Source of the DNA: Takakia lepidozioides | Taxonomy: Eukaryota > Plantae > Bryophyta | NCBI GenBank assembly: GCA_030704615.1 | Contig: CM060732.1 | Coordinates: 76,694,001-76,758,000 of the forward strand | Reading direction: 5' to 3' | Length of the DNA: 64,000 nt | Part shown: in pieces, positions 7,289 through 38,099 of the stretch | Layout of the letters: every line of letters starts with the position of its first letter | Numbering within the stretch: position 1 is the stretch's first letter | Notes under the pieces: model-generated | Database searches by the model: none | The model's input: the letters and a program-made list of their open reading frames with translations, nothing else | What the model was told of the DNA's origin: nothing | Made by a program: the position numbers and the translations under genes

Positions 7289-8107
7289 ATGTCAATTATT
7301 CCAAAGGGCGGCACCCTCCACATCCGGGAGGTGTGGGCAGATAATCTGGAAGATGAGTTTGAGTTGATAAGAGAGATTGTTGATGAGTACCCCTACTTGG
7401 CAATGGACACTGAGTTCCCTGGGGTGGTTGTGAGACCGGTTGGAACGTTCAAGAACAGTGCAGAGTACCATTACCAGACTCTTAGGGCAAATGTTGACAT
7501 GCTGAAACTCATCCAGTTGGGGCTCACGTTCTCCGATGAAGACGGCAGCCTGCCGCGGTGTGGGACGCGAGACTACTGCGTGTGGCAGTTCAACTTCAGG
7601 GAGTTCAATCTCCGGGAGGATGTTTACGCGCAAGACTCTATCGAGCTCCTGAACCAGAGTGGTATCGATTTCAAGATGAATGAAGAGAAAGGAATTGATT
7701 CACAGAGGTTTGGAGAACTTTTGATGTCATCGGGCATTGTGTTGAACGAGAATGTGCATTGGATCACGTTCCACAGTGGCTATGATTTTGGCTACTTGTT
7801 GAAACTGCTGACAAACCAAAACTTGCCATCAGGAGAGTCTGATTTCTTTAACTTGTTGCGGACCTACTTTCCGACTCTGTATGATATCAAGTACCTGATG
7901 AAGTTTTGTGATAACTTGCACGGTGGACTAAATCGGCTTGCCGAGACGCTGGAGGTGGAGCGGATCGGACCGTGCCACCAGGCAGGCTCTGACAGTTTGC
8001 TTACATCCTGCGCTTTTCGCAAGCTGAAGGAGGGTTTCTTCAACGGATCTACAGAAAAGTATGCCGGTGTGTTGTATGGGTTAGGTGTGGATAATAGTGA
8101 AAGTTAG
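7289..8107 (+). CDS. CAF1: CCR4-associated factor 1 (CAF1/POP2) DEDD deadenylase, single exon, 272 aa
   Basis: [57 protein letters not shown] motifs; intact ORF. Confidence 0.97.
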
Positions 8108-11400: not shown

Positions 11401-14235
11401 TTCTATATTAAATGTTTGTAAACTGAGTCCTCAGTAACAAGATGTTTGATGTCTATCATTCCCGTCTCTCTTATCAGAAGAACTGTCATCTGAGGTGTGG
11501 ATGGTGAAGTTAAAGCATGTTTGAAAGACCATGTTGTCAATATTAGCCAGTACAATAATGAGTTTACAACGGAAGGAGTGATTTCATCCAATAGACCTAA
11601 AAGAGCAACAACTAAAAACTACAATACTGATTAAAGTACTGAAGTTTGATGTACATGTGAGATTGCAACTATGTGTGCTGCATAACTACATACTTTGTCT
11701 GTGCCTGATCAACCAGGTTGCTCAGTACTCCCCACTCATGTTGTTGATACAATGCATTGTCCTATGTCCGGAGGATAGCCCAAAGGAATTTACTCTGATG
11801 TAGTAATGTGTTAAGTTATTTTACCACTAGTGTGAAACTAGCTAGGAAATAGTTAGTTTTGATATATTGACATTTGGGATTGACCCAAGTGTCAATCCAG
11901 GGCCCTATATGTTTGGGCACCTGGCGTTGTGTATCTTCACGCAGATCGCGGTGGGCTCATCTTTCTCGAGTTGAGCCTCACCGCATCTAGCTATGGCGCC
12001 GTAGTGTGGATTCCCCATGGCGTGGGGTGCACTTGGTTCGACTTAATATATGAGTGATGTTTTCATATGCAAGTATGTGAGTTTGAGAGAGCTTGTGTGC
12101 TTGTATCATTCTTTCTTTATCACTCGAGAAAGATCAGCTCGAGTCTGTGAGTGTCAGGTTCGAGTTAGTGTGTTTTCAGATCATGAAAAGCGGTTCAGCC
12201 TAGAGTGTAGGGATTCGTGCATGAGCCTATCCAAAGCGGATAGAGTACAAAGGCAAACAGGTTGCAGGTTTGCAATGGATAGAGAGGCGGTCAGTGTTGC
12301 ATAGCTCAACACTATGACAACTGAGTATGCGGTTCTAGTGTGAAATGGAGGAGATGCTGGCCATGAGTGGACGAACTGGTGGTCGTCTTCTTCAGTTGCA
12401 GGCCGAATTAAGGAGCTGCAAGAAGGTGGAGCTGCGAGGGGATGCATCGCAACTTGTTGGGAGCTTCAGTTCCAAGCTCATGAAGAGGTATGAGTGAAGA
12501 GAGGGGGCTGGTCCCTCTGTGTGCAAATCAGTGCACTTATGAAGCATGTGCTTGAGTTGGAAGTTTCAATCTGAAACTCTAGCACTGTAAGGGCTCTTGG
12601 AGTGGCAAGAGTGGGGCTGGAAGGGCAGTAACGAGGCACCCTAGAGCCACGGGATATTCATGAGAAGTGCAGGTGCACCAAGTTTGTAAATGTGTGTATT
12701 TTCATATTCGTTTTTGTGAGCTTCATGAAGAAATAGAGCTTGTTGGGCAGCATATTGCTTGCTTGTTGAGTTTAGGGTACCTCTGGTGGGCCGTGAGAGC
12801 CCAAGAGAGCATGGCAGCAGGTCTGGTGGCTTCACAGCAGCCATACCTCGGCGGCAGCAGGTGCAGGAGCAAACCCCAGCTTGGGGAGAGCTCGAGAATG
12901 CGTGGGAACGCCCGGAAACGCCTCGAGAACGCATGGGAACTCGTGGGGAGTTCTAGGGATGCAGGGAACAAGGGCCGTGAGGGGCCGTGGGGGCGGTATC
13001 ATGAGATACCACGAGCCCAGGCCGTGACTGTTGACCGTGACCGTGGGAAGCCGTGGTGCGGACACCACGAGTGGGCACGGTGGCCAGATCGTGGGGATGG
13101 CGGGCCGTGAAGGCTCGTGGGCGTGGTACCACGGGGTATCACAGGGCAGCCCGTGGCCAACGAGCACCCGAGGGCGGGCCGTGAGGAGTCGTGGCGGTTG
13201 GAGCCACGGAAAGCCGCGAACAGCTGGAGTGAAAAAAAAAAAAATCGTCGTTTCGTGGGACCTTGATGGGGAGGTTGGGCTCTGAATAACAACGGTTTTG
13301 AGCTAGCTGATCCAGCAAAAAAGTCAGAATTGCCTCCCTGTTGCGTTTTAACAAAGGGGATTACTCCCCTGCAGGTAATGTTTTGGGTTTTCAGCCCAAT
13401 TCTTAACTATGGAGGAGACCAGCCTGCAGGTAATTCCTTTGGACAGAATGTTATTGGGGCCTATATGTACCTCTATTTGCTCCATTTTTTAACCTTCAGC
13501 GAATGGTGTGGTTTCCTGAGGTGGTTCCATTATGAGGAATGGCTGGTGGACGTAAGGAGGCACTGGGAGACCCTGTGGAGGCTTGCATGGGGCCTTGGAG
13601 GCCAAGTTTCATGAGCTCGTGGAGGGCGGTTTGAAGAATGTCTACATGATGCTCTCATGGTCATGCAAGTGAGAGAAGAGAGGAAAAAAGAGGGTGTTGG
13701 GATGAGAGCGTGTTGGGGATATTGTTTTAGTTTCTCTTCCTCGTAGCTTTCCACCTTCTCTGTAGGCCGAGACCTTTCCGTAGGTGGAGGCAAGAGTCAG
13801 TCCGGGTTTGGGCTGGGTTGCAGGAACGACATTGTGGAGTTGTTTTTTGTGTGGGGGAGTTGTTGTTTTCATTCTTGTGTTTGGATCCCCTCCACACCTG
13901 CATGCTTGATTGTGCGCCATGCTAGTTTTGTGTGGGCGCTTGATTTTATAGGTGGTTGATTTGGGCTTGCCGATCCAGCCCTAGAGCATGCTGTCAATGG
14001 TAAGGCTGGGTTGATGACCAGTCAGACCATCTTTGTTTCTCATGTGGTGAGGTTGGAGGTGATGATCAGTCAACCATGGGAGTGCCTGCGGTGGATGCAA
14101 GTGTAGGTACAGACTATGTTAGGAACCTAGTATTCCAAACCATAAGCCGCATCAGGTTCTCTACCCGGTTACCTTGTAGAGAGGGGGTTAGAGACAGGTT
14201 CATGACCGGTTGAGTGTCAGTTTCTCAACACGGAG

Positions 14236-15700
14236 GTGCCACTAGTTGCTGAGGAAAGTGTCGGTACAAGCACTAGCGATACTAGCGGGTATACGAGACA
14301 AGGTGTGCGGTTTAGGCCACCTTCACCTCCTGTGTCTTCTATGGAAGGTTTTGAGTCGGATTGTGAATCAGGAGGACTCACACTGGCGGTGCAAGTTGTT
14401 TCTTTGTCATTGTTGTGGGATACAATAGATGAGATGTATGGAGCTACCAAGGGGCCACGAAGGTACTCTGGGGCGGTGGGCACCATCGAGTTGGATGATT
14501 TCATTCAAGAGTTTGATAGTTGGTGTGACTTGCAGCAAATGCGCAATCCACAACTGTTTACGCCTTTCATGGCATGGAAGGGGCTGTTTCAGCACCTTGA
14601 GGGGCCGCCCATAGATGATTACCATGAGTTTAGGCGGGGGCACCATGTTGAGATTGAGGAGTGGAGGATGTACTGGTCACCCGACTATGTCTCCATCACT
14701 AGAGGGACAAGGGCAGTAGCCACACCGGCAGCTTCCATGAGCAGCAGTGGGACTAGTGGTACAAAAGTTACGACGTCCACCCAAGCTACTGCTGCACTAG
14801 CACAAGTGGCGGTGCCTGTCTTCAACCCTGTTGAGGAGTTCTTCGAAGAGTTGAGAAGGAACTACTTGCAAGGGGTGAGGACAGAGAAGTTGAGGAGCTT
14901 GCAAAAGTTCCAACGGAAGCCTACTGAGAGCTTGAGGGAGGTTTTCACTCGCATGAGGCGCTTGATAAATGTAACCCAAGGGGTTACGGAGGCTCAGGTA
15001 GTCCAATTCTGGTATGGGATATTGGACAAGGAGCTGAGGAGAAGGGTTCGGGATGCAAGTCTCCTATAAGCGGCCCAACCCACCTTAGCAAATGTGTTTT
15101 TGCTGGCAGAGCGGATAGAGCTCAACATGGTAGAGAAACGAGTGGTCATGGTGGGATTTGCCAAGGAGGCACCATGGGGTAGTGGTGCTCCTAGTCAGCC
15201 ACTACCTCAACGTGCTCAAGGCAACAAGGGGGCTCAGGTGAAGCCCAAGGAAGGGCTGAGAAGACCTCAGATGCAGGGGTCTCTCCATTCATTTGCAAGC
15301 CAACAACGGGCGGATGTGGTGTGCTGGACATGTGGAGGACCCCATATCAAGAAGGATTGCCCAGAGGGAGGCAATGGTTTGGCACCGGCATAACCTGCAC
15401 AGTTGCAGTGTGGGCATTGTAGTAAGTACGGGCATGGAGAGACCCAGTACTATGGTTTGCATCCTGAGTTGCGCCCAGGCCAGTTCCAAGGGAACAATGG
15501 TGGCCGGAGGCGAGGTGGAGCAGCCCAGAGAGGACGAGGTGCAGGCCAAGGACAAGCTCAACATGGCCAAGGACGCGGAGGTCAGGGTGTTGATCAAAGC
15601 ATGGCCAACCGGCTTCAGCAGCTAGAGCAAAGGCTCGCTGTCATGGCCACAGCTCAGGTGGTACCGGCTCCAAGGCCGGATGATCCACCTCCTGGGAGGA
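14236..15700 (+). pseudogene. Gag (capsid-like region plus zinc knuckles) of the LTR element
   Basis: One frame across ORFs 14236, 15094 and 15403, broken by TAA stops at 15067 and 15391; 'LRSLQKFQRKPTESLREVFTRMRRL...QFWYGILDKELRRRV' is retrotrans_gag-like; 'CWTCGGPHIKKDCP' and 'CGHCSKYGH' knuckles; Gly/Arg-rich tail. Confidence 0.8.
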
Positions 15701-15721
15701 GACATGGGAGGCATGGGATTT

Positions 15722-15910
15722 ATGTGCGGGGCAACACTATCACTAGTGAGGGGTGCCATTGCCACTACCACTATGTACGGGCCACCACTACCACTAGTGA
15801 GGGATGCCACTACCACTACCACTACCACTGTGGGTGAGGCACCACTACCACTAGTGTCGGGCAGCACTACCACTACCACTATGTGCGGGGCAGCACTACC
15901 ACTAGTGTAA
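15722..15910 (+). repeat. Tandem repeat of 51-57 bp (about 3.5 units) at the gag-pol junction
   Basis: Units ATGTGCGGGGC..CACTA(C/T)CACTAGTG..(ACTACC)n translate as MCGATLSLVRGAIATTT / MYGPPLPLVRDATTTTTTT / VGEAPLPLVSGSTTTTT / MCGAALPLV. Confidence 0.8.
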
Positions 15911-15973
15911 GTGGAGTCGGCTGCGGCAGTGACTCGAGGAGCAGCATGAGTTCCTGAGCCACGAGGTGCAGAG

Positions 15974-16861
15974 GTGGAGTTGGATCCACAGTGTGGGGAG
16001 GCAAGCCATCAGGCCATGCTTCCTCAGTCATTCACATTGGCGGAGACAGTGTCGATGCCGTCCATGGCACCTAGTTCTCGCCCGACTGTTACCGAGGATG
16101 AGGTTACTATGCCGTTGGGGAGAGCTATACGGGCAACACCACTACCTAGTATTACCAAGGTTACAGCAGCTAGTGTGCTGCCGGGGGCGGCTACATCTGT
16201 GTGCCAGGCTTCATTGTTCTCGGCTACCATGATTGCGACGCCGGGGGTAAGACCAGCTGAGGTATTCAGGCTAGCAGCTACACTCTGTGAGAGTGGGGAG
16301 GTTACTTCATTTTCTGCGGAGATAGTGGGAGGTGTAGTGCCGGAGGGGTCCTCGGATGTGAGGGTCAAGATCGCCACGGCGGCGCCATGGCAAGCTGCAG
16401 CTGCCAGGTTGATGGAGCTGCCAGCTAGGCCAGCCATTGAGCGCGCCATGGTGACACCTGAAGTTGTCATGTTAGACAACCAGGATGACATTTTCTGTTT
16501 GAGTGGACCGGCAGGCAAGAGGTACCGGCCACTGCGGGTCTTGTTGGACTCGGGAGCTCTGCCATTGATGTTGGGCAGAGCTGCTATTGCAGGCTTGGGC
16601 CTCATGGAGGCAGATATGGAGCCGTGCCCTTTCCAGATACAGACATCTCTGGGAGGATCAGAACAGGCTCAGGGCATAACACGGCGTGAACTGGCTATCA
16701 GACTACAGCCGGATCATCCTACAGATGGCTCAGTGATGACAGCCAAGGCCATTGTGACAGACGCGGTCTCGTACGATGTCCTTGTTGGTAGGGCAGTGTT
16801 GCACCCCATGGGCTTCACCCTGGATTTTTGGGATGAGTCAGCTTCCTATAGGCCTGGATAG
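15974..16861 (+). pseudogene. Retroviral-type aspartic protease region of pol
   Basis: 'RVLLDSGALPLMLG' (catalytic DSG at 16547) and downstream 'YDVLVGRAVL..MGFTLDFW' motif. Confidence 0.85.
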
Positions 16862-17232
16862 CAGTTAAGGGAGGGCCGGCGTATGCAGCTTCCTGTGACA
16901 TTCATAGGAGGAGTTGCGGTTGCCCAACAAGGCAAGATGCCGACACTGGCAGCATTCACAGCTACAGTGAGTTGGTCTGGAGAGTTGCTTGAGGGCAACA
17001 CTCATTCAGAGGATGTGTCACCTCAGGGAGATCTGGATGACATGTATGGTATGGCGGAGTTTCCTGCCATGGTTGCTCACACTCCATGGTAGGGCTCGAG
17101 CAAGGATTTGTTGATTGTCGTGTGCAACAAACCTGGGTAGAGGCTTTTGTACCGTCAGGAGAGGAGGAGAGTACGGGTATTGCACCAGGACCACCTCAAT
17201 TGTCACCATTGGATACCACACCTATTGTGTAG

Positions 17233-18200
17233 CAGTATCCGGATAAAGGCATTTGCCTTCTGGACTTGTTTGGCGGGATCAGCACCGGATTGGCTGCTGT
17301 TCTACAGGCATGTGTACGAGTTCGGCGTTACCTGTATGTGGAGAGGGATGAGACTGTACGACGCATCTTCCTACGCCATGTTGCTCAGTTGGTGCAATAG
17401 TACCCTGAGTTGTTGCCGGTGTCTGCAGTTCGTGGATATCAGCAGGCCTTGCCAGCACACATTTTGTTGCTGGGGATGCAAGATTTGGAGCGGGTTGGCT
17501 CCATTGATTTGGTAGTGGCAGGTTGGCACTGCCAAGGGTATTCATCAGCCGGGCATGGCAATGGATTGCGAGATTCGAGGTCGGGTCTGTTTTGGGAGAT
17601 GGTGCGGGTTTTGCGCCACTTACAACTTCATCAAGCTGTATCTCCAGCATACATCTTGGAGAATATGCCACTGATGGGCGATTCTCGGGCCAGGGTGATG
17701 GTCAGTGTGCATCAAGTCCGATTGTGGCTTGGGTCAGCAGTGTTGCTGGATGCAGTTGCAGTGGGGTCACGGGCTCATCGTCCACGGTTATAGTGGACTA
17801 ACTTGATGCCACCCGCACTGCTCAAGCGTACATTTGATGGGGTGCAGCGGCTAGCACACCTCACAGTGGATAGTATTTTGGACACATGGAGGCAGTTTCA
17901 GTGTGTGAGACACGATGACCGTTCGCCTTTGGCAGTGGTCAACAAGGTGGGTCAACCACGAGTAGCACTACCTACACTGCTCAGCTTCCCAGGATCGCAT
18001 GATTTCCGGGATAGTGGACCTCGCCTCCTGTGGGATGCTCAGCTGCAACAATTAGTGGAGCCTAATGTCGACGAGCTAGAGCGGGCTATGGGTTTTTTCA
18101 CTGGGACCACGGCGGTGCCTTTTTTTTCTAAGGCATCACGTCATCAGGTGTTGGGGAAAGCGATGGATCTCAATTGTTTGACCTGGATTATCAGCTTGGC
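17233..18200 (+). pseudogene. DNA (cytosine-5) methyltransferase domain, DNMT3-like, within retrotransposon pol
   Basis: Single reading frame: motif I LDLFGGI (17260-17280), II YLYVERD, IV IDLVVAGWHCQG (PC>HC, 17527-17532), GLRDSRSGLFWE, VI ILENM (17659), VIII AHRPRL*WTN, IX ELERAMGF (18073), X RHQVLGKAMD (18139); in-frame TAG at 17398 and 17791. Confidence 0.9.
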
Positions 18201-18420
18201 TATGGCTGAGCAACGTAGAGTGCGGAGTGCACTTCCCTTGACGGTCTTCTGCCTACCGAGACGGTATAGGCAGTGAGTGGGGGCAAACCGGTGAGGACCA
18301 CAGGGTGCAGACATCCGTGGCACATGCGAGAGGTGCTCGAGGTTCAGAGGGAGTTGGCAGCCAAGGTGGTAACCCAGGGACGCGTCTCCTACCTCTAAGT
18401 CTACTGGACTTGAGGTTGCA

Positions 18421-18620
18421 GTTACGGAGGACAATTGGAAGCCTGACATTGGACCCATTGTCACTGGTGGAGAGAGACGACGTATACGGCGGTTCTTGAG
18501 GGCTTACAGGAATTGTTTTGCCTCTTGTGCTACGGTGGAGGAGCATGAGAGACATGTTCAGGTTGTGCTTCGACCGGGTTTGGTCAATAGGGATGCGGAT
18601 GGATTGAGTCCCAATCCATG
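18421..18620 (+). pseudogene. RT N-terminal stub fused directly to RNase H C-terminal stub (internal deletion)
   Basis: 'WKPDIGP...RRIRRFLRAYRNCFA' (pre-RT) runs straight into 'HVQVVLRPGLVNRDADGLSPNP' (RNase H end, RPG..N..ADGLSR); no YxDD present. Confidence 0.7.
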
Positions 18621-18830
18621 CACGAGCCAGCAGGATGCCACTGGAGTTCGGTGGCATGGTGAGACGGACGAGGAGATGGTGCCGGGATGGCATGCATTTA
18701 CTTTTTTGTGTATATTGGCATCGGGAGGTCAGGTTGGACCTATAACAGGGATGACTGTAGACGGAGTGTCTGAGGACCCTGAGGCTAGTGATGAGCCAAG
18801 TATGTCAGAGATATACATGAGGATTCGGTT

Positions 18831-19374
18831 GTGTTGGATTACCTCCGCACTGGAGACACGACAACTAGTGTGACTGCCAATGAGAGGGATCGGATCCTAA
18901 AACGAGCCAAGAGGCCTAAGTGGGAGGATGGTCGAGTGAGGATTGTGCCTCACCCAACACAGCGTGCACAGTTAGTGCGGCATGCCCATGAGGAGTTGGG
19001 GCATTTTGGAGTGCGACGCACTCATAGTCTACTGCAGGGGCAGTATTGGTGGCGTGGTATGCACACAGAGGTGCAACAGTTTGTGGCTAGCTGCATGGTG
19101 TGTGACAGGGTGCATGCTTCATTCAACGCCCCTACACCACAGTTGCATCCTTTACCTATCATGGGATTGGGCTACATGTGGAGTCTTGACTTCGCAGGGC
19201 CGTTGCCACTGACGATGCGTCACCACATATATGTGTTGGTGATGGTGGAGCACTTCTCCAAGTGGATTGAATTGGTTCCATTGCCTGATAAGGCTAGTCA
19301 GGGGGCTGCGTATGCATTCCTGGATCGTGTGCTTAGACGATTCGGTGCTCTAGCTGAGGTACTCACGGATCAAG
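18831..19374 (+). pseudogene. Integrase (HHCC zinc-binding domain plus start of rve core), truncated
   Basis: 'AHEELGHFGVRRT...YWWRGM...VASCMVCDR', 'WSLDFAGPLP', 'VEHFSKWIE', 'RFGALAEVLTDQ', then an abrupt switch to AT-rich DNA. Confidence 0.92.
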
Positions 19375-19414
19375 TGCGATACTCTCCCCAATAAACCTTG
19401 AAAAAAAACCAGAC

Positions 19415-20180
19415 AGTTGGGTAGCTGCAGGCTACGGTGGACCAAAAACTGCGTAACATGGTAGTTTCTGCAGTGACCTCCATTCATGGTACCTTTGATA
19501 GTAAAATCACAACTCAATATTTCATACAAGTTTATACGATCTAAGATTTGTAACTACAGTAGAGACATACTCAATTTTTTTATTGTAAAAAAAATCATCT
19601 ATGAAAGAGTTATGGACTTTTAAATTGAATTTTATGGACCGCAGTGTTACACATGAAAAACCATATGGAACTAAAAAACATCATATACACCTAAGTAATA
19701 GCAAAAATGAAAACACTCTAGGGGTTCCATTTTTTTAAAGCTACCCAAATGCACTTTTATATGGATTAAAAACATCAAAAATGAGAGGTATGGACTAATT
19801 TATACTACTAGCCCAAACTGGGCCTATTTTCCCTAATGTACATCATCCTCATTTAGAGGCTTTTGGGATATCATCATTACTAGAAAGGTGTAAAAACCTA
19901 TAATCTAGAGGTGTCAAGTGATATATGGAAAAAATTCAAAAATCTCTAATTATTAGAAATAAAAAATGGTTTTTATCTTTCAGAATTAAATACTAAAATT
20001 TATAATAAAAATAATTCTACCCTATTCGGGTTGGGACTTTTCTAAAAGTGTTAAATATATCATATCTATCATTGAAAATTAAATATTTGGATAAATTCCC
20101 TCAATTTGAGGTATCTATATAGACTTTCATGAGAAAAAATCTACCTCTTGTGGTCCACCGTACCCTGCAACTGCCCAGCT
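19415..20180. mobile_element. AT-rich non-autonomous DNA transposon/MITE-like element with ~30-bp inverted repeats
   Basis: AGTTGGGTAGCTGCAGGCTACGGTGGACCA (19415-19444) vs reverse complement of 20151-20180 AGCTGGGCAGTTGCAGGGTACGGTGGACCA; non-coding AT-rich interior. Confidence 0.65.
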
Positions 20181-21068
20181 TGAGTGCGATATCTTGTCCA
20201 GTGGGATTCTTTTGTTCATTACTTGGTGTGAAAACGCTATGAAGCTCGTCCACGGGTTCCCGCAACTTCCCGCAACTGTTGATGACAAGGCATCTGTGAA
20301 ACGGCTGAAACAGTGGACAGACGTTGTTTTTGAGTGTTTTGTCCGGTCGCTTAGTTTGGAAGGGACCTAAGTTTGTGTCACATACCTTCACATAATTCAT
20401 ACTCGAGGCCATTGACACGGTAGTGAAAAATCGTTTGTCCCGCGACAAGTCCAATATGTACAGGGAGAGGTTGCAGTTGTTGCTTCAATCTCTACATACA
20501 AGAAGAGGTTAATTCGACTGTTTTGATGTCCCTCAGAAGCCTCTGTGTTACGCTTTGCACCTCCGCCGTCATAGCTCAGCTCGTCTGCTCTCTGCTCATG
20601 ACGATGATCCGCCTCATAAGTGGCTTTTCCACCCCCACTCCAAGTTCAAAATTCTCTCTGCTTGGATGGAGCAAGGGTCGAGGACGAGAACAACAGCAAG
20701 CCAGAAAGAGATTCCGAGACGGATAGCACAAGGTAGACGACGCGACAACGGTCTCTTTGCTTGCTTCTGTTCAAACGAGGCCGATCCTCCACAAACCGGC
20801 TGCTCAGGTTATTTCCCCTTATTTTAATGCAATTCCCAAGGCCCTTATCCTCGGTTTAAAATCTTTAAAAAAAGAAAAAGAAAAAAATATAGCAATATAA
20901 GGGAGTCCACATTGAACTTACTATCTTGTTATTATTACTTGGTTAGTGTTAAAACAATTTAGGTAATTTTGGCAGATTGATGGTTATTAGTTGTAATGTC
21001 TTTTTCCTTTGCTTTCAAAGAATCAGTTCTAGTTCTTAATTGTCAAAGTGGCTAGTTGTGCAATCAAC

Positions 21069-23506
21069 ATGAGCGATCATTCTCATCAAAGTACAAAAAC
21101 ATATCATGTGCCTCTATTTGCTGCATCATGGATTGTGCGGTCGCCTCAAATGAAATATGAATTTGACAAGACAAATATTGATTGTGGGATAAAAGAGCTC
21201 ATAATTTTGGCTGGAGATGGAGGCCCTAAACGTCAAAATTATGGTGTATCTAGCTGTCTGTTTCTAGCCCAATATGATTTTAATTTGGGTATATTATCGG
21301 ATGCTCTCCATATATTTTCAGTAGACAACACCCTCCTTCTAAACCAGCAATACATCCAGGAGGCGAGGGTTTTATTTGCGCATTTCAGAATGGATGTCAA
21401 TTATTTGAATTGAAGAAAACAGATATAGGAGAAGTAATGAGCCTAAGACCTAAAGACAACAAGTCATTCAAGCCACTGGAGTTTGTAGGAGAGCAAAAAT
21501 GTTTAGTATTTAGTGTCGATGGAACACGACTGGCCGTTGGCGGCAAGGATGGACATTTGCGTGTTGTAAAATGGTCACCTCTCAAAGTAAGTCCAACATT
21601 ACAAACTATCCGAGACTATTAATCAATAATGACATGTTAGAGAAGAATCCTAATTAGAACATATATAATTTGTGGATGAGGTTATAATCTTTCAGATTAT
21701 ATTGTCGATGAGTGTACGTTCCAAATTCCTTCTTTTGGTATCTTTTCATTTTTGTATTTTCTTAACAATGTTGTGCTTGGTCAGAGCCATCATTTCATGC
21801 TCATCCTCAACCGACTCTATCATTGGTTGTCTGGACGTACCCAGGTATGATGCACTTCATATGACAATATACAACGTGATATTTTAGTGGGACAAATCAT
21901 CGTTATATAGAAAATTATTTTAGCAAATTAAATTGTCTAGTGAATCTCACTAGATAGGAAAACTTAATAATGACAACACAAAACCCATGAAGCCAGAAGA
22001 TATGATACAATATAAACAATGTGGAAAGCCAACGAACCCACCTCCAGAATCAATAGTTCGAAGATGGAACAAAAAGCAGAGGAAATATCAATTAAATCAA
22101 AAGACAATCATGCATGAACAACAGTTTATAAAATCGTGTTATTCCACTTCGATAACTTTGGCTTCTTATATTTGATAAACATAAGCCAAAGCTCTTAAAA
22201 TTAAAGAAAAGCTTAAGATGCACCCTTCATGTCATAACATTGCCTTCAAAATGATTGATCATTATAAAGTTTCAAAATGACTATATAAAATTCTGGTCCA
22301 ACATAGCTATATGTACATATTAAAGAAAGTTATGCTACAAGGATGGATTACTTAAACTTTACATGCAAGAAAATTGATTGTAGGTAGTCCTCGACCAACC
22401 AAAAGCTCATAAATCAATTAAAGATTTGGACTTCAATTTGGTAAATTTTTGGCTTCAACTTCCGATGACAGTGGATGTCGCATATGGGATCTCGCAAATA
22501 ATACACTGGTGGTATCATTGCTATCAAATAAAAGAGAAAAATTTGGATTTGTTAGATTCTCTCGTAATGCTAGAAAACCATTATTGTATATAACCACAAA
22601 ACGAAAGGGAAAAGGTTTTATTTCAACATGGGATACCTCCACATGGAAAAGATCAGGATCTCAAAAGCTACAAGAAAAACCCATCTCCGCCTTTGCCATA
22701 TCACTAGATGGCAGGTACATTTCACAAACTAGACTAGATCTCAATTCCTCTAATCTACAAAAACAAAACATCTTAATATAGTCGTCTCAAACAGTATACA
22801 AATTATTTACATATTTTACGCATTCAACCTAATATATATGATTTATAACAGTATTATTCTTTTTTACATTTATTTACAAGATCATTTTGTGAATAAGGAA
22901 GAACAAACATATTAAAATTTCCACTATTTTGTTAGAGTTGTAAGAGATAATATTGGAATACTTAAAAAAAGATTGCAACAAGTACGTAGTTTTAAATTGA
23001 GTTTGTTAGTATCACACACACACACACACCAACTATGTAGTATTTGGACTTCACTACAAGCGTAGTGTTGAGTAACATGGTTTTGTAATTATTCTATTAC
23101 ATACAGGTCACTTGGCATTGGAAGCACAGATGGCGATGTCTCAATCATCAATACTGAAGGACTCTCAATACGTCATTACATAAAAAATGCCCACATGATA
23201 CTTGTTACCTCTATGGAATTTTCACCAAATGGTTGTGCTCTTTTGTCTGTGTCAGCAGACTATAGTGCTCATGTCACAACTATAAAACCATTCCAGAATA
23301 ATACATGGCGGAAATCTCTGTTTTTTTTCTTCATGTTTTTGCTGTCTATATTGATAGTGTTCATAGGTAATGGTTTTTACATGAGTAAGAAATCCCCATC
23401 CACTTTGTTATCCGAGATGATTGCTTGGTTGTACTCTTCGACTTTCATGAATCTGGGTAACTATGATGATATTTGTAATTGTGCAACGGGGTACTGTCGC
23501 ATGTGA
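21069..23506 (+). pseudogene. SEC12-like (SAR1 GEF/PREB) WD40 membrane protein, 3 exons (21069-21586, 22384-22714, 23107-23506), two frameshifts
   Basis: 'YHVPLFAASW', 'LAGDGG', 'AIHPGGEGFICAF..GCQLFE', 'LAVGGKDGHLRV', 'AHKSIKDLDF', 'LASTSDDSGCRIWD', 'AHMILVTSMEFSP' and C-terminal TM; GT-AG introns; frame changes near 21327 and 22440. Confidence 0.82.
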
Positions 23507-25288
23507 ACTTAATAATGTGAAATCGAATATATCATGGGTTGGCTTTGGATACTTATTCATGAAGTTTCATACATTGTGTGATATATGTTCATTTTTTTCA
23601 GCTTCAATGCCCACAATAACAATGTTCGAAGGTAACAGTTGAAACCAACATCCACTATTTGAAACCTATACTATGGTGGGTGTAGAAGTGGGTCCGAAAC
23701 CAACAAGTGTTTGAAAGATTAGAGCAGCCAATGCTCCAACATGTATGACTCATAGTAACACCTATATTTCATTTCTTCTATTCTCTTCAAATGTTTCTCG
23801 AACTTGCCGACAAAGAAAAAAACATATGGTACAATTTGATAGAGAGCTGGAAATCTGCTAGTTTGCATTGGACATCAACTAGCATCGAGTTTCCAGTGAA
23901 CTTGTTGTGGTTTGTAGCTACACATTGTGGGGGGCTTGACCCTACTTTTGTACTTTTGAGCTCCAGGGCTTTTGTCCCCTTTAATTATAAATTTTAAAAA
24001 AAAAAAACATGTCAAGTTTAATCTCAATTTTTTGACGCAAGAACTAGGTGTTTATAAATTGACCCAAGGGCCCAATTGTAATTTTCTCTTGGAATATCTA
24101 CTTAATATGTTGATTGGCTCCCTTAGTCTTAGCCCAGGCACCCCTTAAGTATTTCAAGGGTTGCTATGCATTTATCCTTAAATAAGTGAATTAAAAAAAC
24201 CAAGTTAATCGAGAACAACTTAATTTAAATGATAAATTAAATAAAATAATCATGTTTGGAAAGTTAAACAACAAAAGGGCCCAAGCAAGCAAGTGAATGA
24301 ATAACCATTTGTAGAGCAAACTGTCCTAGCTCTGCAAAAACTGGAAAACTTGTCAAATTTCAACATCACAAGTCGAGATTAAATCTAAGTCCATGACAAA
24401 TGATCCAGGCCTTTTAATTTGAAGTTTATGTCAAATAGATGATCCACATGTACTTTTATTTGGAGTTTTTGGGGGGCTGAAAAGAGGACAGAGGCAAGGG
24501 AAAAATAACCTTGCAAAATAGGCTTACAAAGGGGACACCCACCCGGAGGACATTTTATAGACAAAATATTTCATTTTTTAACAAATTATGCTTTAAACTT
24601 ATGAAACTACGCATTGAAAGACCACCTCAGACTTACTACGTTTTGTTTTGTTTTGTGTTTTCCTGCAAAAAGGGATGGAACCCTTGAACTAAATTAAAAG
24701 GGTGGAAAAAATAACCATCAGGGGGTACTATGTTTAAAAATACGAAATATTGAAATGTGTATATTTAAACAGTTTAAAAACATAAAAATAATTGTCAAAA
24801 TTTACCTATAAAGAATGCTCTTATCCAAAGAGCCTGCTGAGTCTAGCTCATGAATATCCAAAATTTTGTATTGAAAGCTTGGATCAGCTTATTTTCTGTA
24901 TGAACGTCCTAAATCCACATGATTCTGGGTTCAAATCCTGCTACCTTGTTGGGTGTGGTATATATTACCCTTGAGCCTTGAGCGCGACCTTTTTTTTTGG
25001 TCGAAAAATGGGACCAGAAATAGATTGAAAAGGGTGGAAAAAATAACTGGAAAAAATAACCACCAATGTCCATGTGGGATACGAGGGGAAGAGACCTAGG
25101 TGACTTTGAAAGAGGTTAACAAAAGGAAATAAAAAGAGGTTATTTTCTCCTCTCGAGAAATGTTTTTTCTTAAAACACCAGGGAGCGACAGGTAGGCTCC
25201 TTACAATCAAGGGGCCTGATTTGTTTCCTTTAGAGAAAATGAAAAAAGAAAAAAGAAAAAGAAAAAGTCCTGGTAGCCCTAATTACAC

Positions 25289-28200
25289 GGAAGATAATAG
25301 GAATAATGTAAGAACTTAATGCAAGCGCGTCAGGACGGTCCAGCCCTGACACCCGTACCGCCGGTTCTTCGCCTCCGGCAGACATCGAAAGGCAGCCGGC
25401 TGGGCTCGGTCAATCCCTCCCCACCCCCGCCCTCATCCCATCGGCGTCGTCGCCCCTGCGTCGTCGTTCAGCGACACCAGTCCGCCGCTTCCAGCAGTCC
25501 GCCAGTTCCCTGTAACCCCCGCCCGGGTTCAACCATCACCCCCATGTAACCCTCTGTAACTCCGCCGAGTGTAACCCACATTACCATGTAACCCTTTGTA
25601 ACCCATATAATCCCATGACCCTCTGTAACCCATGTAACCCTCTATAACACCGCAGAGTGCCACCCCCACTCCTATGTAACCCTCACTACATGTAACCCTC
25701 TGTAACCCATGTAACCCTTATAACACCGCAGAGTGTCACCCCCACCCCTATGTAACCCTCACTACATGTAACCCTCTGTAACACTTTGCAACCCTCTGTA
25801 ACACTTTGCAACCCTCTGTAACACTTTGCAACCCATGTAACCCTATGTAACCCTCTGTAACAACGCAGAGTGTCGCCCTCACCCCTTATGTAACCCTCAC
25901 TCCATGTAACCCTCTGTAACCCATGTAACCCTCTGTGACCCTTTGTAACCCTCACCACCATGTAACCCTCTGTAACACCGCAGAGTGTCACCCTCACCCG
26001 TATGTAACCCTCATTCCATGTAACCCTCTCTGACCCTCTGTAACCCTCACTCCATGTAACCCTCTGTGACCTCTATATCCCTCACCAGGTGTAACCCTTA
26101 CCTCCATGTAACCCTCTGTAACACCGCAGAGTGTCACCCTCGCCACCATGTAACCCTCACTCCATGTAACCCTCACAAACCCTCTGTGGCTCTGTAACCT
26201 ATGTAACCCTCTGTAACACCGTAAAGTGTCGTCCTCACCCCTTATGTAACCCTCTATAACCCATGTAACCCTCTGTGACCCTTTGTAACCCTCACCACCA
26301 TGTAACCCTCTGTAACACCGCAGAGTGTCACCTTCACCCCTATGTAACACTCACTCCATGTAACCCTCTCTGACCCTCTATAACCCTCACCACCATGTAA
26401 CCCTCTGTAACCCATGTGACCCTCTATATCCCTCACCAGGTGTAACCCTTACCACCATGTAACCCTCTGTAACACCGCAGAGTGTCACCCTCGCCACCAT
26501 GTAACCCTCACTCCATGTAACCCTCACAAACCCTCTGTGGCTCTGTAACCTATGTAACCCTCTGTAACACCGTAGAGTGTCGTCCTCACCCCTTATGTAA
26601 CCCTCTGTAACCCATGTAACCCTCTGTGACCCTTTGTAACCCTCACCACCATGTAACCCTCTATAACACCGCAGAGTGTCACCCTCACCCGTATGTAACC
26701 CTCACTCCATGCAACCCTCTCTGACCCTCTATAACCCTCACCACCATGTAACCCTCTGTAACCCATGTGACCCTCTATATCCCTCACCAGGTGTAACCCT
26801 TACCACCATGTAACCCTCTGTAACACCGCAGAGTGTCACCCTCGCCACCATGTAACCCTCCGTAACCCTCACAAACCCTTTGTGACACCGCAGAGTGTCG
26901 CCCTCACCCCTTATGTAACCCTCACTCCATGTAACCCTCTGTAACCCATGTAACCCTCTGTGACCCTTTGTAACCCTCACCACCATGTAACCCTCTATAA
27001 CACCGCAGAGTGTCACCCTCACCCCTATGTAACCCTCATTCCATGTAACCCTCTCTAACCCTCTGTAACCCATGTAACCCTCTCTGACCCTCTATATCCC
27101 TCACCAGGTGTAACCCTTACCACCATGTAACCCTCTGTAACACCGCAGAGTGTCACCCTCGCCACCATGTAACCCTCCGTAACCCACACAAACCCTCTGT
27201 GACACCGCAGAGTGTCACCATCATCCCCATGTAACCCTCACTCCATGTAACCCTCTGTGACCCTCCGTGGCTCTGTAACCCATGTAATCCTCTGTAACAC
27301 CGTAGAGTGTCACCCTCACCCCTTATGTAACCCTCACTCCATGTAACCCTTTGTAATCCATGTAACCCTCACCACCATGTAACCCTCTATAACACCGCAG
27401 AGTGTCACCCTCACCCCTATGTAACCCTCATTCCATGTAACCCTCTCTAACCCTCTGTAACCCATGTAACCCTCTGTGACCCTCTATATCCCTCACCAGG
27501 TGTAACCCTTACCACCATGTAACCCTCTGTAACACCGCAGAGTGTCACCCTCGCCACCATGTAACCCTCCGTAACCCACACAAACCCTCTGTGACACCGC
27601 AGAGTGTCACCCTCATCCCCATGTAACCCTCACTCCATGTAACCCTGTGTGACCCTCCGTGGCTCTGTAACCCATGTAATCCTCTGTAACACCGTAGAGT
27701 GTCACCCTCACCCCTTATGTAATTCTCACTCCATGTAACCCTTTGTAACCCATGTAACCCTCACCACCATGTAACCCTCTGTAACACCGCAGAGTGTCAC
27801 CCTCACCCGTATGTAACCCTCATTCCATGTAACCCTCTTTGACCCTCTGTAACCCTCACTCCATGTAACCCTCTGTGACCCTCTATATCCCTCACCAGGT
27901 GTAACCCTTACCTCCATGTAACCCTCTGTAACACCGCAGAGTGTCACCCTCGCCACCATGTAACCCTCACAAACCCTCTGTGGCTCTGTAACCTATGTAA
28001 CCCTCTGTAACACCATAGAGTGTCGTCCTCACCCCTTATATAACCCTCTGTAACCCATGTAACCCTCTGTGACCCTTTGTAACCCTCACCACCATGTAAC
28101 CCTCTGTAACACCGCAGAGTGTCACCCTCACCCCTATGTAACCCTCACTCCATGTAACCCTCTCTGACCCTCTGTAACCCTCACCACCATGTAACCCTCA
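25289..28200 (+). repeat. Left arm: ~260-bp unique TIR plus ~2.7-kb array of TGTAACCC-based subrepeats
   Basis: Continuous variants of CATGTAACCCTC/TGTAACACCGCAGAGTGTCACCC with higher-order periodicity. Confidence 0.92.
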
Positions 28201-28519
28201 GTATCACCGCCTCGTGTACATCATACACGTGTAAACTATCCGACGGCCGAATGGAGGTTTAAATAGAGGCCGAAACCCTAATTTGCTCTCTCCATCCGTT
28301 TCCAGATTCTTAGCTCGCTCGTTTTTTTGCTTTGGGGCATCAGCTTTCTGCAATTCCCATGGTGCCCAATCGGCTTCACACATCAATGCGAAAGATTTGT
28401 AGTTCATTCAGTTCAGTATCGTCATCCCAGCAACATACAAGACAACTCTTTCCGTGCAACGATCCGTCAAATTTATTACCACGGTTTTCTCTACGATTGA
28501 TACGGTTGTCTCTATTCTT

Positions 28520-28705
28520 TTTCTTTCTCAATGTCATTCTTGTTGTTTTGTCACCGTCCCCGATGGCTATGGTATTCCTAAGATCCGCATTAGGAAAGGG
28601 TTTTGTTTCTTTCGGTCTAGCCATGCAAGCAGCCGCTCATTTGACGGGGTGCCCATTCACTCTCCTCTCGTGTATCTTTTGTTCACACACCAGCCGGGGC
28701 AGCCT
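28520..28705 (-). pseudogene. Degenerate inverted copy of the accessory-gene zinc-finger segment
   Basis: Minus strand reads GCPGWCVNKKIHERRVNGHPVK*AAACMARPKETKPFPNADLRNTIAIG vs KCPYCGAVKVDKSRLNRHIVDGTAACMARPKGTKPFPDAELKHAMAVE in the + gene. Confidence 0.7.
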
Positions 28706-29521
28706 ACTCATCGCTATTATGGATGCAATACGTATCGAATCATGCGTGTTTTGCAAGCACTGTCAACCGGTTACATGTCTGATGGTTTATATGACTACCT
28801 CACGTGTGGTATGGTTACACACAGGGGGTTACACGGTGTTTTCTTTCTCAATACATGCTAGCTTGGTAGACGGTTTAGTAATGGAGGTTTAGATGGGTTG
28901 ACATGTTTGATGGGTTACGTGGATGTTGCGCTCGCGGAGCCACATAGGCTAGGGTTACATGGGTGGGGCATTACATTGACCATGTTTACCTGGAGGTTGC
29001 ATACTAATGGTTTGATATGACAGGGTTACATCGATGTTGTGTTCGGGAGTCACATAGACTAGGGGTACATGAGGTTGTGACGAAGGGTTACATCATATCT
29101 GGGTACCTGACGGAGGGTTACACTCGACGTGCCTGGCATTCGAGTAATGGCCGGTTTATCGCGCTCACAAGTGTAGGGTTACGGGTTACACTCCGCTATT
29201 CCGGGTGACACCGGGATTGCAACTCATACACGTGTGAGTCAGCGCGGATATAATTGATTGCAAGCCGCCAGATTTTAATGAACCACCGTCTTTCGCTTAA
29301 CCGACGTGCCTTACGGGTGACATCTAGCTAGCTTCGTTCTTCGTTCTTTGATCATTGTTCAGTTTTCCCCTTCTCGCAGCCATTCATATTCTTCCTGCAC
29401 TCCTTGCTGTGCGTGCTCCCTGTTGTGCATTCTTCGGAATTCTCTTGGTCTTGGTCTTTTCTTGTCTTGTCTTTTCTTGCTCTTGCTCTTCTCTTCTCTT
29501 CTGTCAGCTTTTTCTTTTGTC

Positions 29522-32500
29522 ATGGCTGATTGTTATTTGTTCCCTGGAGAGGCTACTATTCCATTTGATCACTTGAAAAGGGATGGCGAACGAGTTCGCT
29601 TTTGGTACACTGAGCATGAGCATGCTACAATGATCGCGTACTGCCACACCAGGTGTAGAGAGGCCAAGGTGGAGGGAGCAAAGGGCCGGCCTAAGTTCAA
29701 ATGTCCTTATTGTGGGGCAGTAAAGGTAGATAAGAGCAGATTGAATCGGCATATTGTCGATGGAACGGCCGCATGTATGGCCAGACCGAAAGGAACAAAA
29801 CCGTTTCCTGATGCGGAGCTCAAGCATGCCATGGCTGTTGAAAATGTGATGAATTCTGTTCCAGCTTCTTCTGTTGATGCATATCATGCATGGATTCTGC
29901 AAAATAGGGTGGCTTTGGGTGAGATTGCAGATCCTATTGAAGTGCCTGCTGTTGTACCTTCTTCGGCTATTTCTGCTACAGAGGTTCCATCTTCTAGTGC
30001 TCCTGCTGTTTCTGTCCCTGGTCCTTCTATTCGGCAGGTTTCTAACGAGAGAGACAAGCGGCGATTGAGCCCGCCTCTACCTGTCCCTATTGCAAAGAAA
30101 ATCAACATTGCAAACCGGGGAAACCGGAGCTCAAGGTTCATCTTGCGAAAGAGAACTCCAGGCTCAATCCTTCTGCTACCGCATGGCCTTATTCCTCAGT
30201 TCCCATTTCCGAATGTCAATGAGAAGGGGTTTTGGCCGGCATTCCAAGAATTTGTTGCGCGAGGCGAGGGCGCAGTCCATGCGACAGCTGCAAAATCAAG
30301 TTGGGTTCTATCGACAGACAATCAAGTTGGATTCCCTGCCATTTCTCTGTTTTTCAAATTTGGGCTGTTGTCTATCCATGTAACCCTTTGTGTTACCCCC
30401 CCTGTCTCTCCTGTGGCGTGTAACCCAGAGTGTAACCCACCTACAGAGGACCCCTTTTAAAAACCCCTATGGTGTGTAACCCACCTCTGTGTAACCCCGT
30501 GTAGCCCATCTTGTTTGTAACCCATTTTCATGTGTAACCCCTCGTGCTGTAACATTTTTCTCTGGTGTAACCCCTCACGCTTTATTGCGCAGGGAGGTCG
30601 ATATCATCTTAGAAGCGATGATATGGACAGTGTTGTTGCTGCCCACAAGGCATTTACTGCCCAGCCGGATCATGGTCCGTTAATGATAGAGGAATTGAAT
30701 CGGGTGAAGGAGTATTTAGAGAGCATTGGGCATCCTGACATGCCAAAGCAGAAAAAGAAAAAAGGTGGGAGACTTACACGAGTCCATCGAGAGAGCCAAG
30801 CCTCACATGATGATGACACGATGGACGAACTAGCTGTTGGCAATACCGACCTTGACGATGCCAGAACTTCAAATCCTCTTGTCATCACTACTGTAGATGG
30901 AATCAAAGGTTTGGTTGTTCCACATCCGTTGGAATTCACTCGTGGTTTTGCCGAAGGATTGATCAGTCAAATGGAGAATCTCACCAAACCGCACATTGGA
31001 CCGCCACCACTCCTTTTGAGAATTCTAGCCCACAACGATGTAAGAAATCATGGCAGGTCAGTTTCCCAAACGCATCCCAGGTTGGGGTTCACGACTGAAC
31101 TTCTGGAAAGTGCTCTTACGGCCTCAAAGGTGAAGGACCTGGTCGATGAGTATTATGGCTTTAGTCTGATGTACTTTGCACAACCTGGTGACGGAATTGC
31201 GACCTTGGATTCTGAGCTCGAAGACTTAAGATCGAGTTTGAGTACAGAAGAGTGGGGTGACCGGTCAATTAAGATCAACGGAGCTATATAGTTTTGCAAG
31301 GCAAGCCGTCGTCGCGCCGCCCATCACTTTGCGATCCAACAGAGAGAATCGTTTATCCAGCTTTGGTGTTGTGGCCTCTTCAGCGAATCACCAACAGAAA
31401 TGGACTTCAATGCGCGTTTGGGCATCCAGTATATGAGAGACCTTGGGTCTGTAGTGCCTTGGTATCTCTGTAAGTGTTACTCCATCCACTGTCACCCCTC
31501 TCGTCGTGTAACCCCTTTGTGTGTAATCTTGTAATCATTGTAACCCTCGCTATGTGGAACCTTGTAACTCAGTGTAACCCTCGTTGTGTGTAACCCTGTA
31601 ATCAGTGTAACCCTCGGCTATGTGGAACCTTGTACTCAGTGTAACCCTCGCTGTGTGTAAATCAGTGTAACCCTCGGAGTATGTAACCCTGTAATCAGTG
31701 TACCCCTAATGGTACCCCTCGCTGTGTTACCCTAGATTTGTTACCCTCTCGTTGTGTAATCTCAGTAGTGTAACCCATGGTAGTGTAACCCATTGCAAAC
31801 TACTGTCTCTAACAGGGTGGTGTAACCCATATCGTGTAATCCGAACCACTGTCTTGTCCTAGTCAGTGTAACCCTTACATAGTGTAACCCTTGCACTTTC
31901 AAAAACCTCGTTCCACGACTAAAAACCTTTGTCTTTTCCCCGATGCAGATGAGTCCGAGCTCATGACCAATCAAGTCGCCAATGCGTTCAAAAACCTTTT
32001 TGAGGCTCAACGTGAGCTTCACGAAGTTGTGTATGGGGCCCCTCCACAATGCGATACAGGGGGCGTAGGGGGCGCGCAGACGAGCGATGGGCCAATTTCC
32101 GCCCCGCAGAGCGATGATGTACATGACGAGGACATCATTCCAAGTCAATCTGCCGTTGTATCTTTGTCGCAGGTTGGTGAATTGTACTCAACCCAGCTGC
32201 ACTTAGGGGTGAACCTAGCAGACTTGACGCGGGATTTGCCCATGATTTCTGATATTGATACTGAAGATGATACATCAAGGTGGAACACCCAAGTGCGAAC
32301 CTCTTTGTCCGCAGCCCCAGTCATTTCTTTTGAAGGTCTTAATCGAAGAATCGGGGACCCGCTTGACCCAGAGTCTGTGTATGACTTTGAATCTGGAGAT
32401 GCTGGGTTGAACCCTCGATGCAGCAATGTAAGTATTTGTCAGGATCATGTGGTCAACCTCTCTCAGAATGACCCAGCCTTCGTGGGTCCCATTGATGCGC

Positions 32501-32919
32501 AGGGTGACTCTGCAAGGGGAGGATGCCCTGAAACCGAGGGTTACACTGCACCTGAGGGTGACACTGTGCAGAGAGGAGCAACAGGGAAGGAGGGTTACAC
32601 TGCACCTCAGGGTGACACTGTGCAGAGAGGAGCAACAGGGAAGGAGGGTTACACTGCACCTCAGGGTGACACTGTGCAGAGAGGAGCAACAGGGAAGGAG
32701 GGTTACACTGCACCTCAAGGTGACACTACGGATACCGGTGTGGCTGACAATGTCGTGAGGGACATTGTCGTGGGAACCACAGAAGATCGAACCCGTCATA
32801 GGCGGGCGTTTACTGCAAGTTGGTTCAACGAGTCAACCATGATAGCTTCCCGTACTCATATGATTAGTTGGCTGTGTGACGAGATGGACAAAGACTTGGT
32901 CAGATGGCCAAAGAAATAA
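29522..32919 (+). CDS. MULE accessory gene of unknown function, N-terminal C2HC-type zinc finger; exons 29522-30325, 30593-31469, 31949-32919 (~883 codons) with one premature TAG at 31289
   Basis: GT-AG introns with matching phases (0, 1) join three long ORFs; CPYC-x10-RH-x7-C motif; basic NLS-like KQKKKKGGR; acidic low-complexity C-terminus. Confidence 0.65.
32535..32730 (+). repeat. 54-bp coding tandem repeat (EGYTAPQGDTVQRGATGK, about 3.5 copies)
   Basis: GAGGGTTACACTGCACCTCAGGGTGACACTGTGCAGAGAGGAGCAACAGGGAAG repeated in frame. Confidence 0.9.
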
Positions 32920-37200: not shown

Positions 37201-37669
37201 ATAAAGCGAGGAGGGTTATCGCCATATACGACTTTGCTAGACTAGCAGAAAGAAGTGGGGCTGGGAATGTTATACAACCCTCATAAGTGACTTACTTATG
37301 CCACTGACGATAACTGTTTGCACGCGGTGTTGTCAAATCTGGCAACTCACGGTACCTTCGATCTTGAACATAAAATTGGGTCTTCCCATCCACTCTACTC
37401 CTTTCTCCCTCCAGAAAGTCAGGAATGCGAGACCATGGAACGACAGCTACTTCGATGGATATCCGTTTCCCTTTTCCCTGGGAAACCTGGCGTATCCAAC
37501 GGAGGTTTGTGTGATTGAAAAGCCCGTCTATGGGCAGCTGTAGGATGCATTTCAAATGAGATACCAAATGCTGCAAATGACAGAGTTCTCCCGCCTCATC
37601 TTTCAAACCATTTGATTCCAATGCTGCTTTGCGTTCCTCGTCTAGCACCTTCGCGGCAGCACATGCCAT
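34269..37669 (-). CDS. MULE transposase with SWIM zinc finger; exons 37669-37296, 37185-36471, 36357-36158, 35415-34269; 811 aa, no internal stop
   Basis: DDE triad DATFGTN / FVVDDADAE / TNAAIESWH; SWIM CDCPW-x5-CKH; KRGCTCSF..HVDAKGKPCHG; GT-AG boundaries give one continuous 2436-nt frame. Confidence 0.9.
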
Positions 37670-38099
37670 TAGCAGCAACAATACCACCAGTATAGTACAA
37701 ATCGCATAATACACGCGGGCAACGCAGCGGAGCCCTCGGGACTGCACGTCGTCTACGCACCTGGTGAAAATGACGAGCGATGATGGAGTTACACGTGGGT
37801 TTTGATGTCACCGAATCGTGTAACCCAGGTTTGAATTCAAAATATCTGACACCTCTTGGAGCCCGCCAATTTTTGCCGGGCACTAAGGGGCTACACGAAC
37901 AGGGGTGACATGCGTTGGGGATAAAGGATCCGGGGTGACACGAGCTATGAGTGACACAATTGGGGGTTACACGGGGGGGATTGATACAGTATCGGGGTTA
38001 CATGGTGGGGTTACAATGTGAGAGTTGCACAATGAGGGTTACACGAGGCGGAGCTAAAGCGCTGACGTGCAGAGGGTTACAGGGATGATGGGGTTACGA

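Follow-up and report, generated by a model that had tools for sequence, protein, structure and literature searches.

Several retrotransposons are known to carry their own cytosine methyltransferase. The closest described system is KnitGypsy-Dnmt3 of the alga Klebsormidium nitens (de Mendoza et al. 2018, PMC5890265), which the accessible text of that paper presents as a Ty3/gypsy element with an intronless, unpermuted DNA methyltransferase 3 (DNMT3) domain under purifying selection. SymbioDIRS-Dnmt3 and SymbioLINE-Dnmt, described in the same text, are likewise retrotransposons with a C5 methyltransferase, although they are tyrosine-recombinase elements or long interspersed nuclear elements (LINEs) from other hosts and hold the enzyme in other slots. 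The text leaves open the role of retrotransposon DNMTs, and its one gypsy enzyme gave no activity. Here we analysed a 64,000-nucleotide stretch of the bryophyte Takakia lepidozioides (assembly GCA_030704615.1, contig CM060732.1, positions 76,694,001 to 76,758,000; hereafter the window), in which positions 14236..19374 hold a broken, dead copy of a multicopy Ty3/gypsy retrotransposon with a DNMT3-like domain of the same unpermuted, intronless kind. Comparison with its relatives reveals that the DNMT domain is a fixed trait of this element family.

Two homolog searches, each scoring about 8000 candidates, returned at least 22 and at least 111 homologs, at least 133 together. Organism names are attached to 31 of the 133, all of them Marchantia, Calypogeia or Sphagnum, which bears out the suggestion of an earlier note on this DNA that the element belongs to an embryophyte lineage of long terminal repeat (LTR) elements. 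Among 144 metagenome matches, 80 loci were retained; they show the domain order gag, knuckle, protease (PR), DNMT, reverse transcriptase (RT), RNase H (RH), integrase (INT) and PHD finger, and the integrase of one of them (L005) is identical to that of the Sphagnum fallax protein P0021. In sequencing runs from the organism itself, the 11-21 kb region is covered by 52,317 and 12,949 contigs, a summed depth that we did not take as copy number; multicopy cover extends from about 11.8 to 19.35 kb, DNMT included, between single-copy flanks. Trees of the protease region and of the DNMT (13 rows) recover the same nine-row clade with no supported conflict. The homologs, their shared neighbours, the even contig cover and the agreeing trees together remove a one-off capture and a nested insertion, and the domain can be assigned to the polyprotein of the element, as the earlier note had held.

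Within this family the DNMT is conserved as well as Gag and better than the protease, with 63-69% identity between close relatives and the window copy, against 53-66% for Gag and 52-66% for the protease. Between the window copy and the main Sphagnum-type family, the proportions of synonymous (pS) and nonsynonymous (pN) differences are 0.72 and 0.23. The within-family dN/dS values of 0.40-0.76 were set aside because they mostly reflect post-insertion decay. Copies show CG decay, with Arg changed to His, Cys, Gln or a stop.

The methyltransferase motifs proposed from the letters of the window alone all lie in a single frame at the places given: LDLFGGI at 17260, YVERD, GWHCQG with its Cys codon at 17530, ENM at 17659, and further on AHRPRL*WTN at 17773, ELERAMGF at 18073 and RHQVLGKAMD. 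A profile search with PF00145 on the translation of 17146-18270, with X at three TAG stops, gave 36.8 bits (E 4e-9) at a cut-off of 22 bits. In a comparison with 11 relatives, the window DNMT could be aligned to 8 of them across 331 of its 332 residues with 63-69% identity, which indicates that the domain is neither a chance match nor split by introns. Among solved structures, its sequence matched DNMT3A best (2.4e-7), followed by DNMT3B (3e-5), DRM-type enzymes (1.5e-3 to 2e-3) and M.HhaI (3e-3). The structure model of an intact relative, P0024 (predicted local distance difference test score, pLDDT, 68; predicted template-modelling score, pTM, 0.76), matched DNMT3A at 1.6e-16, and every top rank listed was DNMT3A, B or C; its target-recognition region is poorly modelled, with pLDDT under 50 at 263-304. 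These sequence and fold matches support the assignment as DNMT3-like with unpermuted motifs I-X, and by match scores the predicted domain is nearest to DNMT3 rather than to DRM, DNMT1 or bacterial enzymes.

Family members keep the catalytic Pro-Cys, Glu-Asn and Arg-x-Arg signatures. The catalytic Cys is present in 115 of the 121 proteins covering the site and the Pro of the Pro-Cys pair in 116 of 121; of 133 proteins that cover motif VI, 123 have its Glu, and all 11 scored sites are intact in 23 of 47 full-cover proteins. The window copy departs from the family: its motif IV reads HC instead of the PC of its relatives, and its DNMT frame holds three TAG stops (17230, 17398 and 17791). Judged from these residues, intact domains of the family are probably catalytically active on DNA.

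The full-length Marchantia proteins P0004, P0005 and P0145 (1248-1281 aa) run through Gag and protease and terminate behind the DNMT. The metagenome open reading frames (ORFs) P0139, P0188 and P0174 (1319-1332 aa) likewise end after the DNMT. The placement of the domain inside Pol, put forward in the earlier note, thus needs correction for this lineage, in which the DNMT closes the Gag-protease ORF and an in-frame stop precedes RT; it does hold for a sister clade described below. Of the 52 loci in which both DNMT and RT are seen, 32 have them in a common frame, and the remainder are mostly frameshifted. In the main Sphagnum-type family, RT, RNase H, integrase and PHD follow behind a stop located 75 codons past the DNMT. 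The junction codon is covered at 60% identity or more by 53 loci, 45 after removal of 8 near-duplicates, and is a stop in 44 of these 45 distinct sequences (34 TAG and 10 TAA; the remaining one has GAG), compared with 12 of 41 for the next most stop-prone of 677 codons. It is followed by CAA in 45 of 45 sequences and then by CCC in 42 of 45; of 281 other stops, 12 have CAA next to them.

A second family, whose DNMT is 38-53% identical to the Marchantia probe, carries TAA CAA TCA or TTA at three of its seven loci (L064, L071 and L076) and one-letter variants of the stop-CAA motif at the remaining four (L052, L054, L055 and L069). Locus L040 has an in-frame TAG CAA CCA 124 codons past its DNMT. 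For the family of the window copy itself, one contig (run X5) has TAG CAA CCA with the RT-side frame, and another (run X8) holds the frame across the junction gap. Linker length varies by family, and the frame is kept in all three families readable on both sides. A stop followed by CAA-pyrimidine-pyrimidine is therefore present in four divergent families. The type I readthrough signal of tobamoviruses is UAG-CAR-YYA (PMC3542737); its full CAR YYA part is matched in three families (3 of 7 loci, one locus and one contig), and the main family has CAA CCC. Tobacco mosaic virus (TMV) readthrough is about 10% efficient (PMC2754532), and by analogy the junction stop is likely to be read through by a few to 10% of ribosomes. 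A consensus stem after the stop was considered and dropped, since only 3 of 43 pairs showed two-sided change among 10 copies of one family. The gene models P0007, P0008 and P0021, from Marchantia and Sphagnum, all leave out the DNMT-RT junction, each at its own position, which looks as though predicted introns were bypassing the stop.

A profile search extended the comparison to 447 representatives at E 1e-30 or better. Among 146 new top matches, 81 carry the DNMT inside Pol, after RNase H and before integrase, 11 end after PR-DNMT, 5 continue into RT with no stop after the DNMT, and 49 were left unclassed. In a 45-row DNMT tree, which took 22 of the 72 full in-Pol rows, the in-Pol slot forms one clade (support 98), and the window DNMT falls in a 12-row clade (Shimodaira-Hasegawa-like approximate likelihood-ratio test, SH-aLRT, 99) made up entirely of proteins that terminate behind the DNMT. 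The Closterium relative P0384 groups with the open-frame rows in this tree. Slot classes and tree together show that the module sits in two slots of PHD-integrase gypsy elements: the bryophyte lineage uses the Gag-side slot, and the RH-DNMT-INT forms are a separate sister clade. The 146 matches (P0360-P0505) thus include, with these 81, a large clade of PHD-integrase gypsy elements that have the same DNMT3 between RNase H and integrase. The ENA protein P0023 (1235 aa) is a DIRS-like ORF, its RT-like region judged by eye, with a DNMT3-like domain 32% identical to that of the window and a weak Dam match (E 0.0023), which would make two methyltransferases in one element.

The reading that we favour, at a probability of roughly 55%, is that a leaky stop leads to a DNMT packaged at Gag level, which mostly methylates the cDNA of the element before integration. 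Most ribosomes would halt after Gag-PR-DNMT and few would continue to RT-RH-INT-PHD, so that readthrough would bring the methyltransferase into each particle at Gag levels, far above the copying enzymes. The viral protease would free the DNMT within the particle, where it would methylate the cDNA, and new copies would arrive pre-marked. SymbioDIRS-Dnmt3, a related retrotransposon DNMT3, is reported to methylate CG de novo in yeast (PMC5890265). Taken by itself, the suggestion that cDNA is the main substrate of the enzyme could go either way. A wider scenario, in which a bryophyte-wide and streptophyte-old lineage uses a TMV-type leaky stop to place a DNMT3 on every Gag and to ration RT and integrase, methylates its cDNA within the particle and integrates as a circle at a site chosen by the PHD finger, is tentative and somewhat doubtful.

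Several points weigh against this reading. In the accessible text of PMC5890265, KnitGypsy-Dnmt3 had no activity in yeast, a result that its authors call inconclusive. The 5 of 146 matches without a stop and the 81 of 146 with the domain in Pol imply that the module does not depend on dosage at Gag level, and some rows classed as ending after the DNMT may be truncations. The CAA CCC of the main family lacks the final A of the consensus. Its 45 sequences are one family and hence one evolutionary observation, some of them being the same insertion in different samples, and the evidence for the stop in the window's own family is a single contig. A clean motif was absent in six loci from two decayed groups (L057, L060, L062, L074, L066 and L068), and the junction survey leaves out Marchantia and Calypogeia junction DNA. 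The gag-pol stop context of Tca2 gave no readthrough when tested, according to the accessible text (PMC2194720).

One more point counts against the leaky stop and in favour of the likeliest alternative. In 44 of 45 main-family sequences an in-frame ATG lies three codons past the stop, with a pyrimidine tract and AG behind it, an arrangement that fits reinitiation or splicing; in the second family an ATG lies at five codons. With the same anatomy, Pol could then come from an RNA that has been spliced, or from ribosomes that reinitiate at an ATG past a true stop, and the DNMT would still be produced together with Gag. Ogre elements splice between protease and RT, and the three gene models mentioned above omit the junction. 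However, these models join at three different places, no in-frame Met is found within about 50 codons past the window junction and none near that of L040, and both the frame and the CAA-Y-Y are kept across families despite their differing linkers. The run X8 contig is unspliced at the junction, a weak point since that run is only guessed to be RNA. We regard this alternative as unlikely.

It is less probable still that an active DNMT mainly targets chromosomal DNA, either integrated copies or insertion sites, limiting or masking the family. Synthesis at Gag level would exceed the need of one cDNA, the integrase ends in a PHD finger, which is a chromatin reader, and a self-limiting role is raised in the accessible text of PMC5890265. 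Against such a target, the DNMT in ORF1 has no host reader domain joined to it, the fusion to Gag points to the particle, and the CG decay of the copies is explicable by host methylation alone. We give little credence to the domain being kept as a nucleic-acid-binding or RNA-modifying module that does not methylate DNA: the inactivity of KnitGypsy-Dnmt3 in yeast (PMC5890265, accessible text) and the poorly modelled target-recognition region would agree with it, whereas the different families conserve the S-adenosylmethionine-binding sites as well as the Cys, Glu and Arg and the nearest structures are the DNA enzymes DNMT3A and DNMT3B. A one-off capture of a host gene, a nested insertion or non-plant DNA can practically be dismissed, for although the window copy is badly broken and the host placement depends on one gene with weak support, 133 homologs and 80 loci have the same neighbours, contig cover in the runs of the organism itself takes in gag, protease, DNMT and integrase alike, the trees agree, and plant genes flank the element.

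If the favoured reading with a leaky stop is correct, the DNMT should be about as abundant as Gag and roughly tenfold above RT. It would also represent a rare case of gag-pol readthrough in a plant retroelement; the verified plant readthrough cases were viral as of 2009, according to the accessible text of PMC2754532. Under the wider scenario outlined above, intact copies would give Marchantia, a model land plant, a second and mobile source of de novo methylation. Marchantia polymorpha is a transformable model with methylation mutants, and its intact-looking ORFs make self-methylation of cDNA testable in a native host. These elements can inflate DNMT counts in bryophytes, and introns annotated across the stop may be artefacts of gene modelling.

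In the window copy, all element features lie on the plus strand, and gag, protease and integrase follow the gypsy order; the gag-PR-RT-RH-INT order with a DDE-type integrase is that of Ty3/gypsy. The likely 5' terminal repeat, part A, begins the element at 11831..12065, its start placed by a TG at 11831 and by contig cover, which near 11830 changes from single-copy to multicopy, and its end inferred from a TTTTCA resembling the A end of L059. The gag region with its CCHC knuckle (14236..15650; PF03732 E 0.008, below cut-off) has two premature stops, and its product is 53-66% identical to the Gag of intact relatives. A tandem repeat block of three 77-nt copies (15723..15907), in which the reading frame shifts from 1 to 2, lies in the spacer between it and the aspartic protease (16490..16900). 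The latter was identified by its LLDSGA motif, with the Asp at 16547 where the DSG had been noted earlier, and by alignment to relatives (41-66% identity); some relatives match Asp_protease_2, and a Pfam search of this copy gave no protease match. The broken DNMT3-like C5 cytosine methyltransferase (17230..18225; PF00145 E 4e-9, best PDB match DNMT3A) is in a separate frame from the protease, whereas relatives have a single ORF.

The tail of the Gag-PR-DNMT ORF and the ORF1/Pol junction site (18226..18375) are frameshifted, with a decayed stop signal and about 128 nt absent relative to related contigs. By comparison with other copies, 18376..18620 holds a pre-RT linker, a 36-nt RT stub and the end of RNase H, most of RT and RNase H being deleted (about 570 and 680 nt gone); at 18527 other copies continue into a YIDD-coding stretch. 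The total loss from junction, RT and RNase H is about 1.4 kb. The integrase zinc finger and the first part of its core (18807..19374; PF17921 1.7e-17, PF00665 1.7e-8) are cut at 19374, with PHD and 3' repeats absent from the copy. No 3' part of the element was found elsewhere in the window, nor any recurrence of its A or B repeats within it. Frameshifts lie near 15.7-15.9, 17.1, 18.25 and 18.8 kb. The observed/expected CG ratio is 0.51 in the element and 0.47 on average in the window, which is uninformative. Just past the integrase cut, at about 19410-20185, lies an AT-rich segment with similar inverted ends, resembling a miniature inverted-repeat transposable element.

The repeat layout is known from relatives and is not visible in the window copy, which is without its 3' end. 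An A-coding-B-A-B layout is complete in L049, L056 and L059 (3 of 80 loci, two of which share one site; L059 5909-6249 and 14548-15116 are among the end coordinates), three further loci have the 3' B-A-B, and L002 and L070 have A-coding-B forms, which resemble B-B recombinants. Ends are TG..CA, with 4-bp target duplications in L059/L056, L049, L002 and L070. The B|A junction is near-palindromic and a purine tract lies ahead of the first B; no obvious tRNA primer site was seen by eye after A. Speculatively, the layout could result when a two-LTR circle is opened at the palindromic B|A junction and integrated.

Ordinary host genes surround the element. The intronless CAF1 gene at 7289-8107, identified by protein comparison, shares 91% identity with Marchantia and 89-90% with Calypogeia and mosses; for four streptophyte algae the figure is 85-88%, and for vascular plants it does not exceed 85%. 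A first CAF1 tree did not place the window gene; a further one joins it to mosses with weak support (84/78) and sets the algae apart in a clade (95/95), so the land-plant origin supposed in the earlier note agrees with this one gene, by which a bryophyte, perhaps a moss, is the likely host. A WD40 protein gene (21200-23500), which we take to be SEC12-like, a MAP kinase kinase gene (40798-41784), which a homolog search placed no more narrowly than Streptophyta, a triose-phosphate translocator gene (47470-49500, minus strand) and a presumably NOT3-like gene (53000-59000) were also recognized. Between them, 25288-40086 is a 14.8-kb Mutator-like element with a 9-bp target duplication on both sides and long terminal inverted repeats made of GGGTTACA-type tandem units. 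It has a weak SWIM match on the minus strand (34272-35522), and its three plus-strand ORFs at 29321-32919 gave no Pfam match above cut-off.

Among known systems, KnitGypsy-Dnmt3 combines DIRS-like A-coding-B-A-B repeats with gypsy domains (PMC5890265), a layout shared by L049, L056 and L059. This suggests, from a comparison by description only, that it forms one lineage with the bryophyte elements. The accessible text places its DNMT in the Pol ORF of one alga, whereas in land plants the domain closes the Gag-protease ORF and a stop parts it from RT; readthrough alone would make it part of a product that contains Pol. Later papers, in their accessible parts, say "streptophytes" for gypsy-DNMT3 without naming land plants; the supplement text of PMC5890265 lists Physcomitrella and not Marchantia or Sphagnum. 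Our literature search, with figures, preprint supplements, subscription papers and the REXdb paper (PMC6317226) outside its coverage, found no description of a land-plant gypsy DNMT3 or of its leaky stop. EpiLTRs (bioRxiv 10.64898/2026.05.21.726589) are also C5-methyltransferase retrotransposons but, as far as the accessible preprint goes, have a DNMT4-sister enzyme, Dam and a chromodomain. The gypsy polyproteins of Chlamydomonas Gypsy-7a_cRei and REM1 share the PHD finger, and no DNMT is mentioned in the accessible text (PMC9940879).

Host DNMT3 and DRM have the DNMT3-type fold and motifs in common with the window domain, according to the accessible text of PMC6453930 and PMC12344493. Host DNMT3 is multi-exon in Klebsormidium and has an extra domain in land plants, whereas the window domain is intronless and fused to Gag and protease; DRM is permuted and the window domain is not. 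As for the stop, tobamoviruses and benyviruses similarly place an in-frame UAG followed by CAA-Y-Y between an abundant product and its polymerase extension (accessible text of PMC3542737 and PMC2754532). These type I systems differ from the main family, which has CAA CCC, and from the present elements as a whole, which are known from sequence alone. Gammaretroviruses also use gag-pol UAG readthrough, with the stop after Gag (PMC5009743, accessible text) and not, as here, after protease and DNMT. Gypsy elements with a DNMT3 were thus already known from Klebsormidium; the land-plant range and the anatomy of the stop appear to be new.

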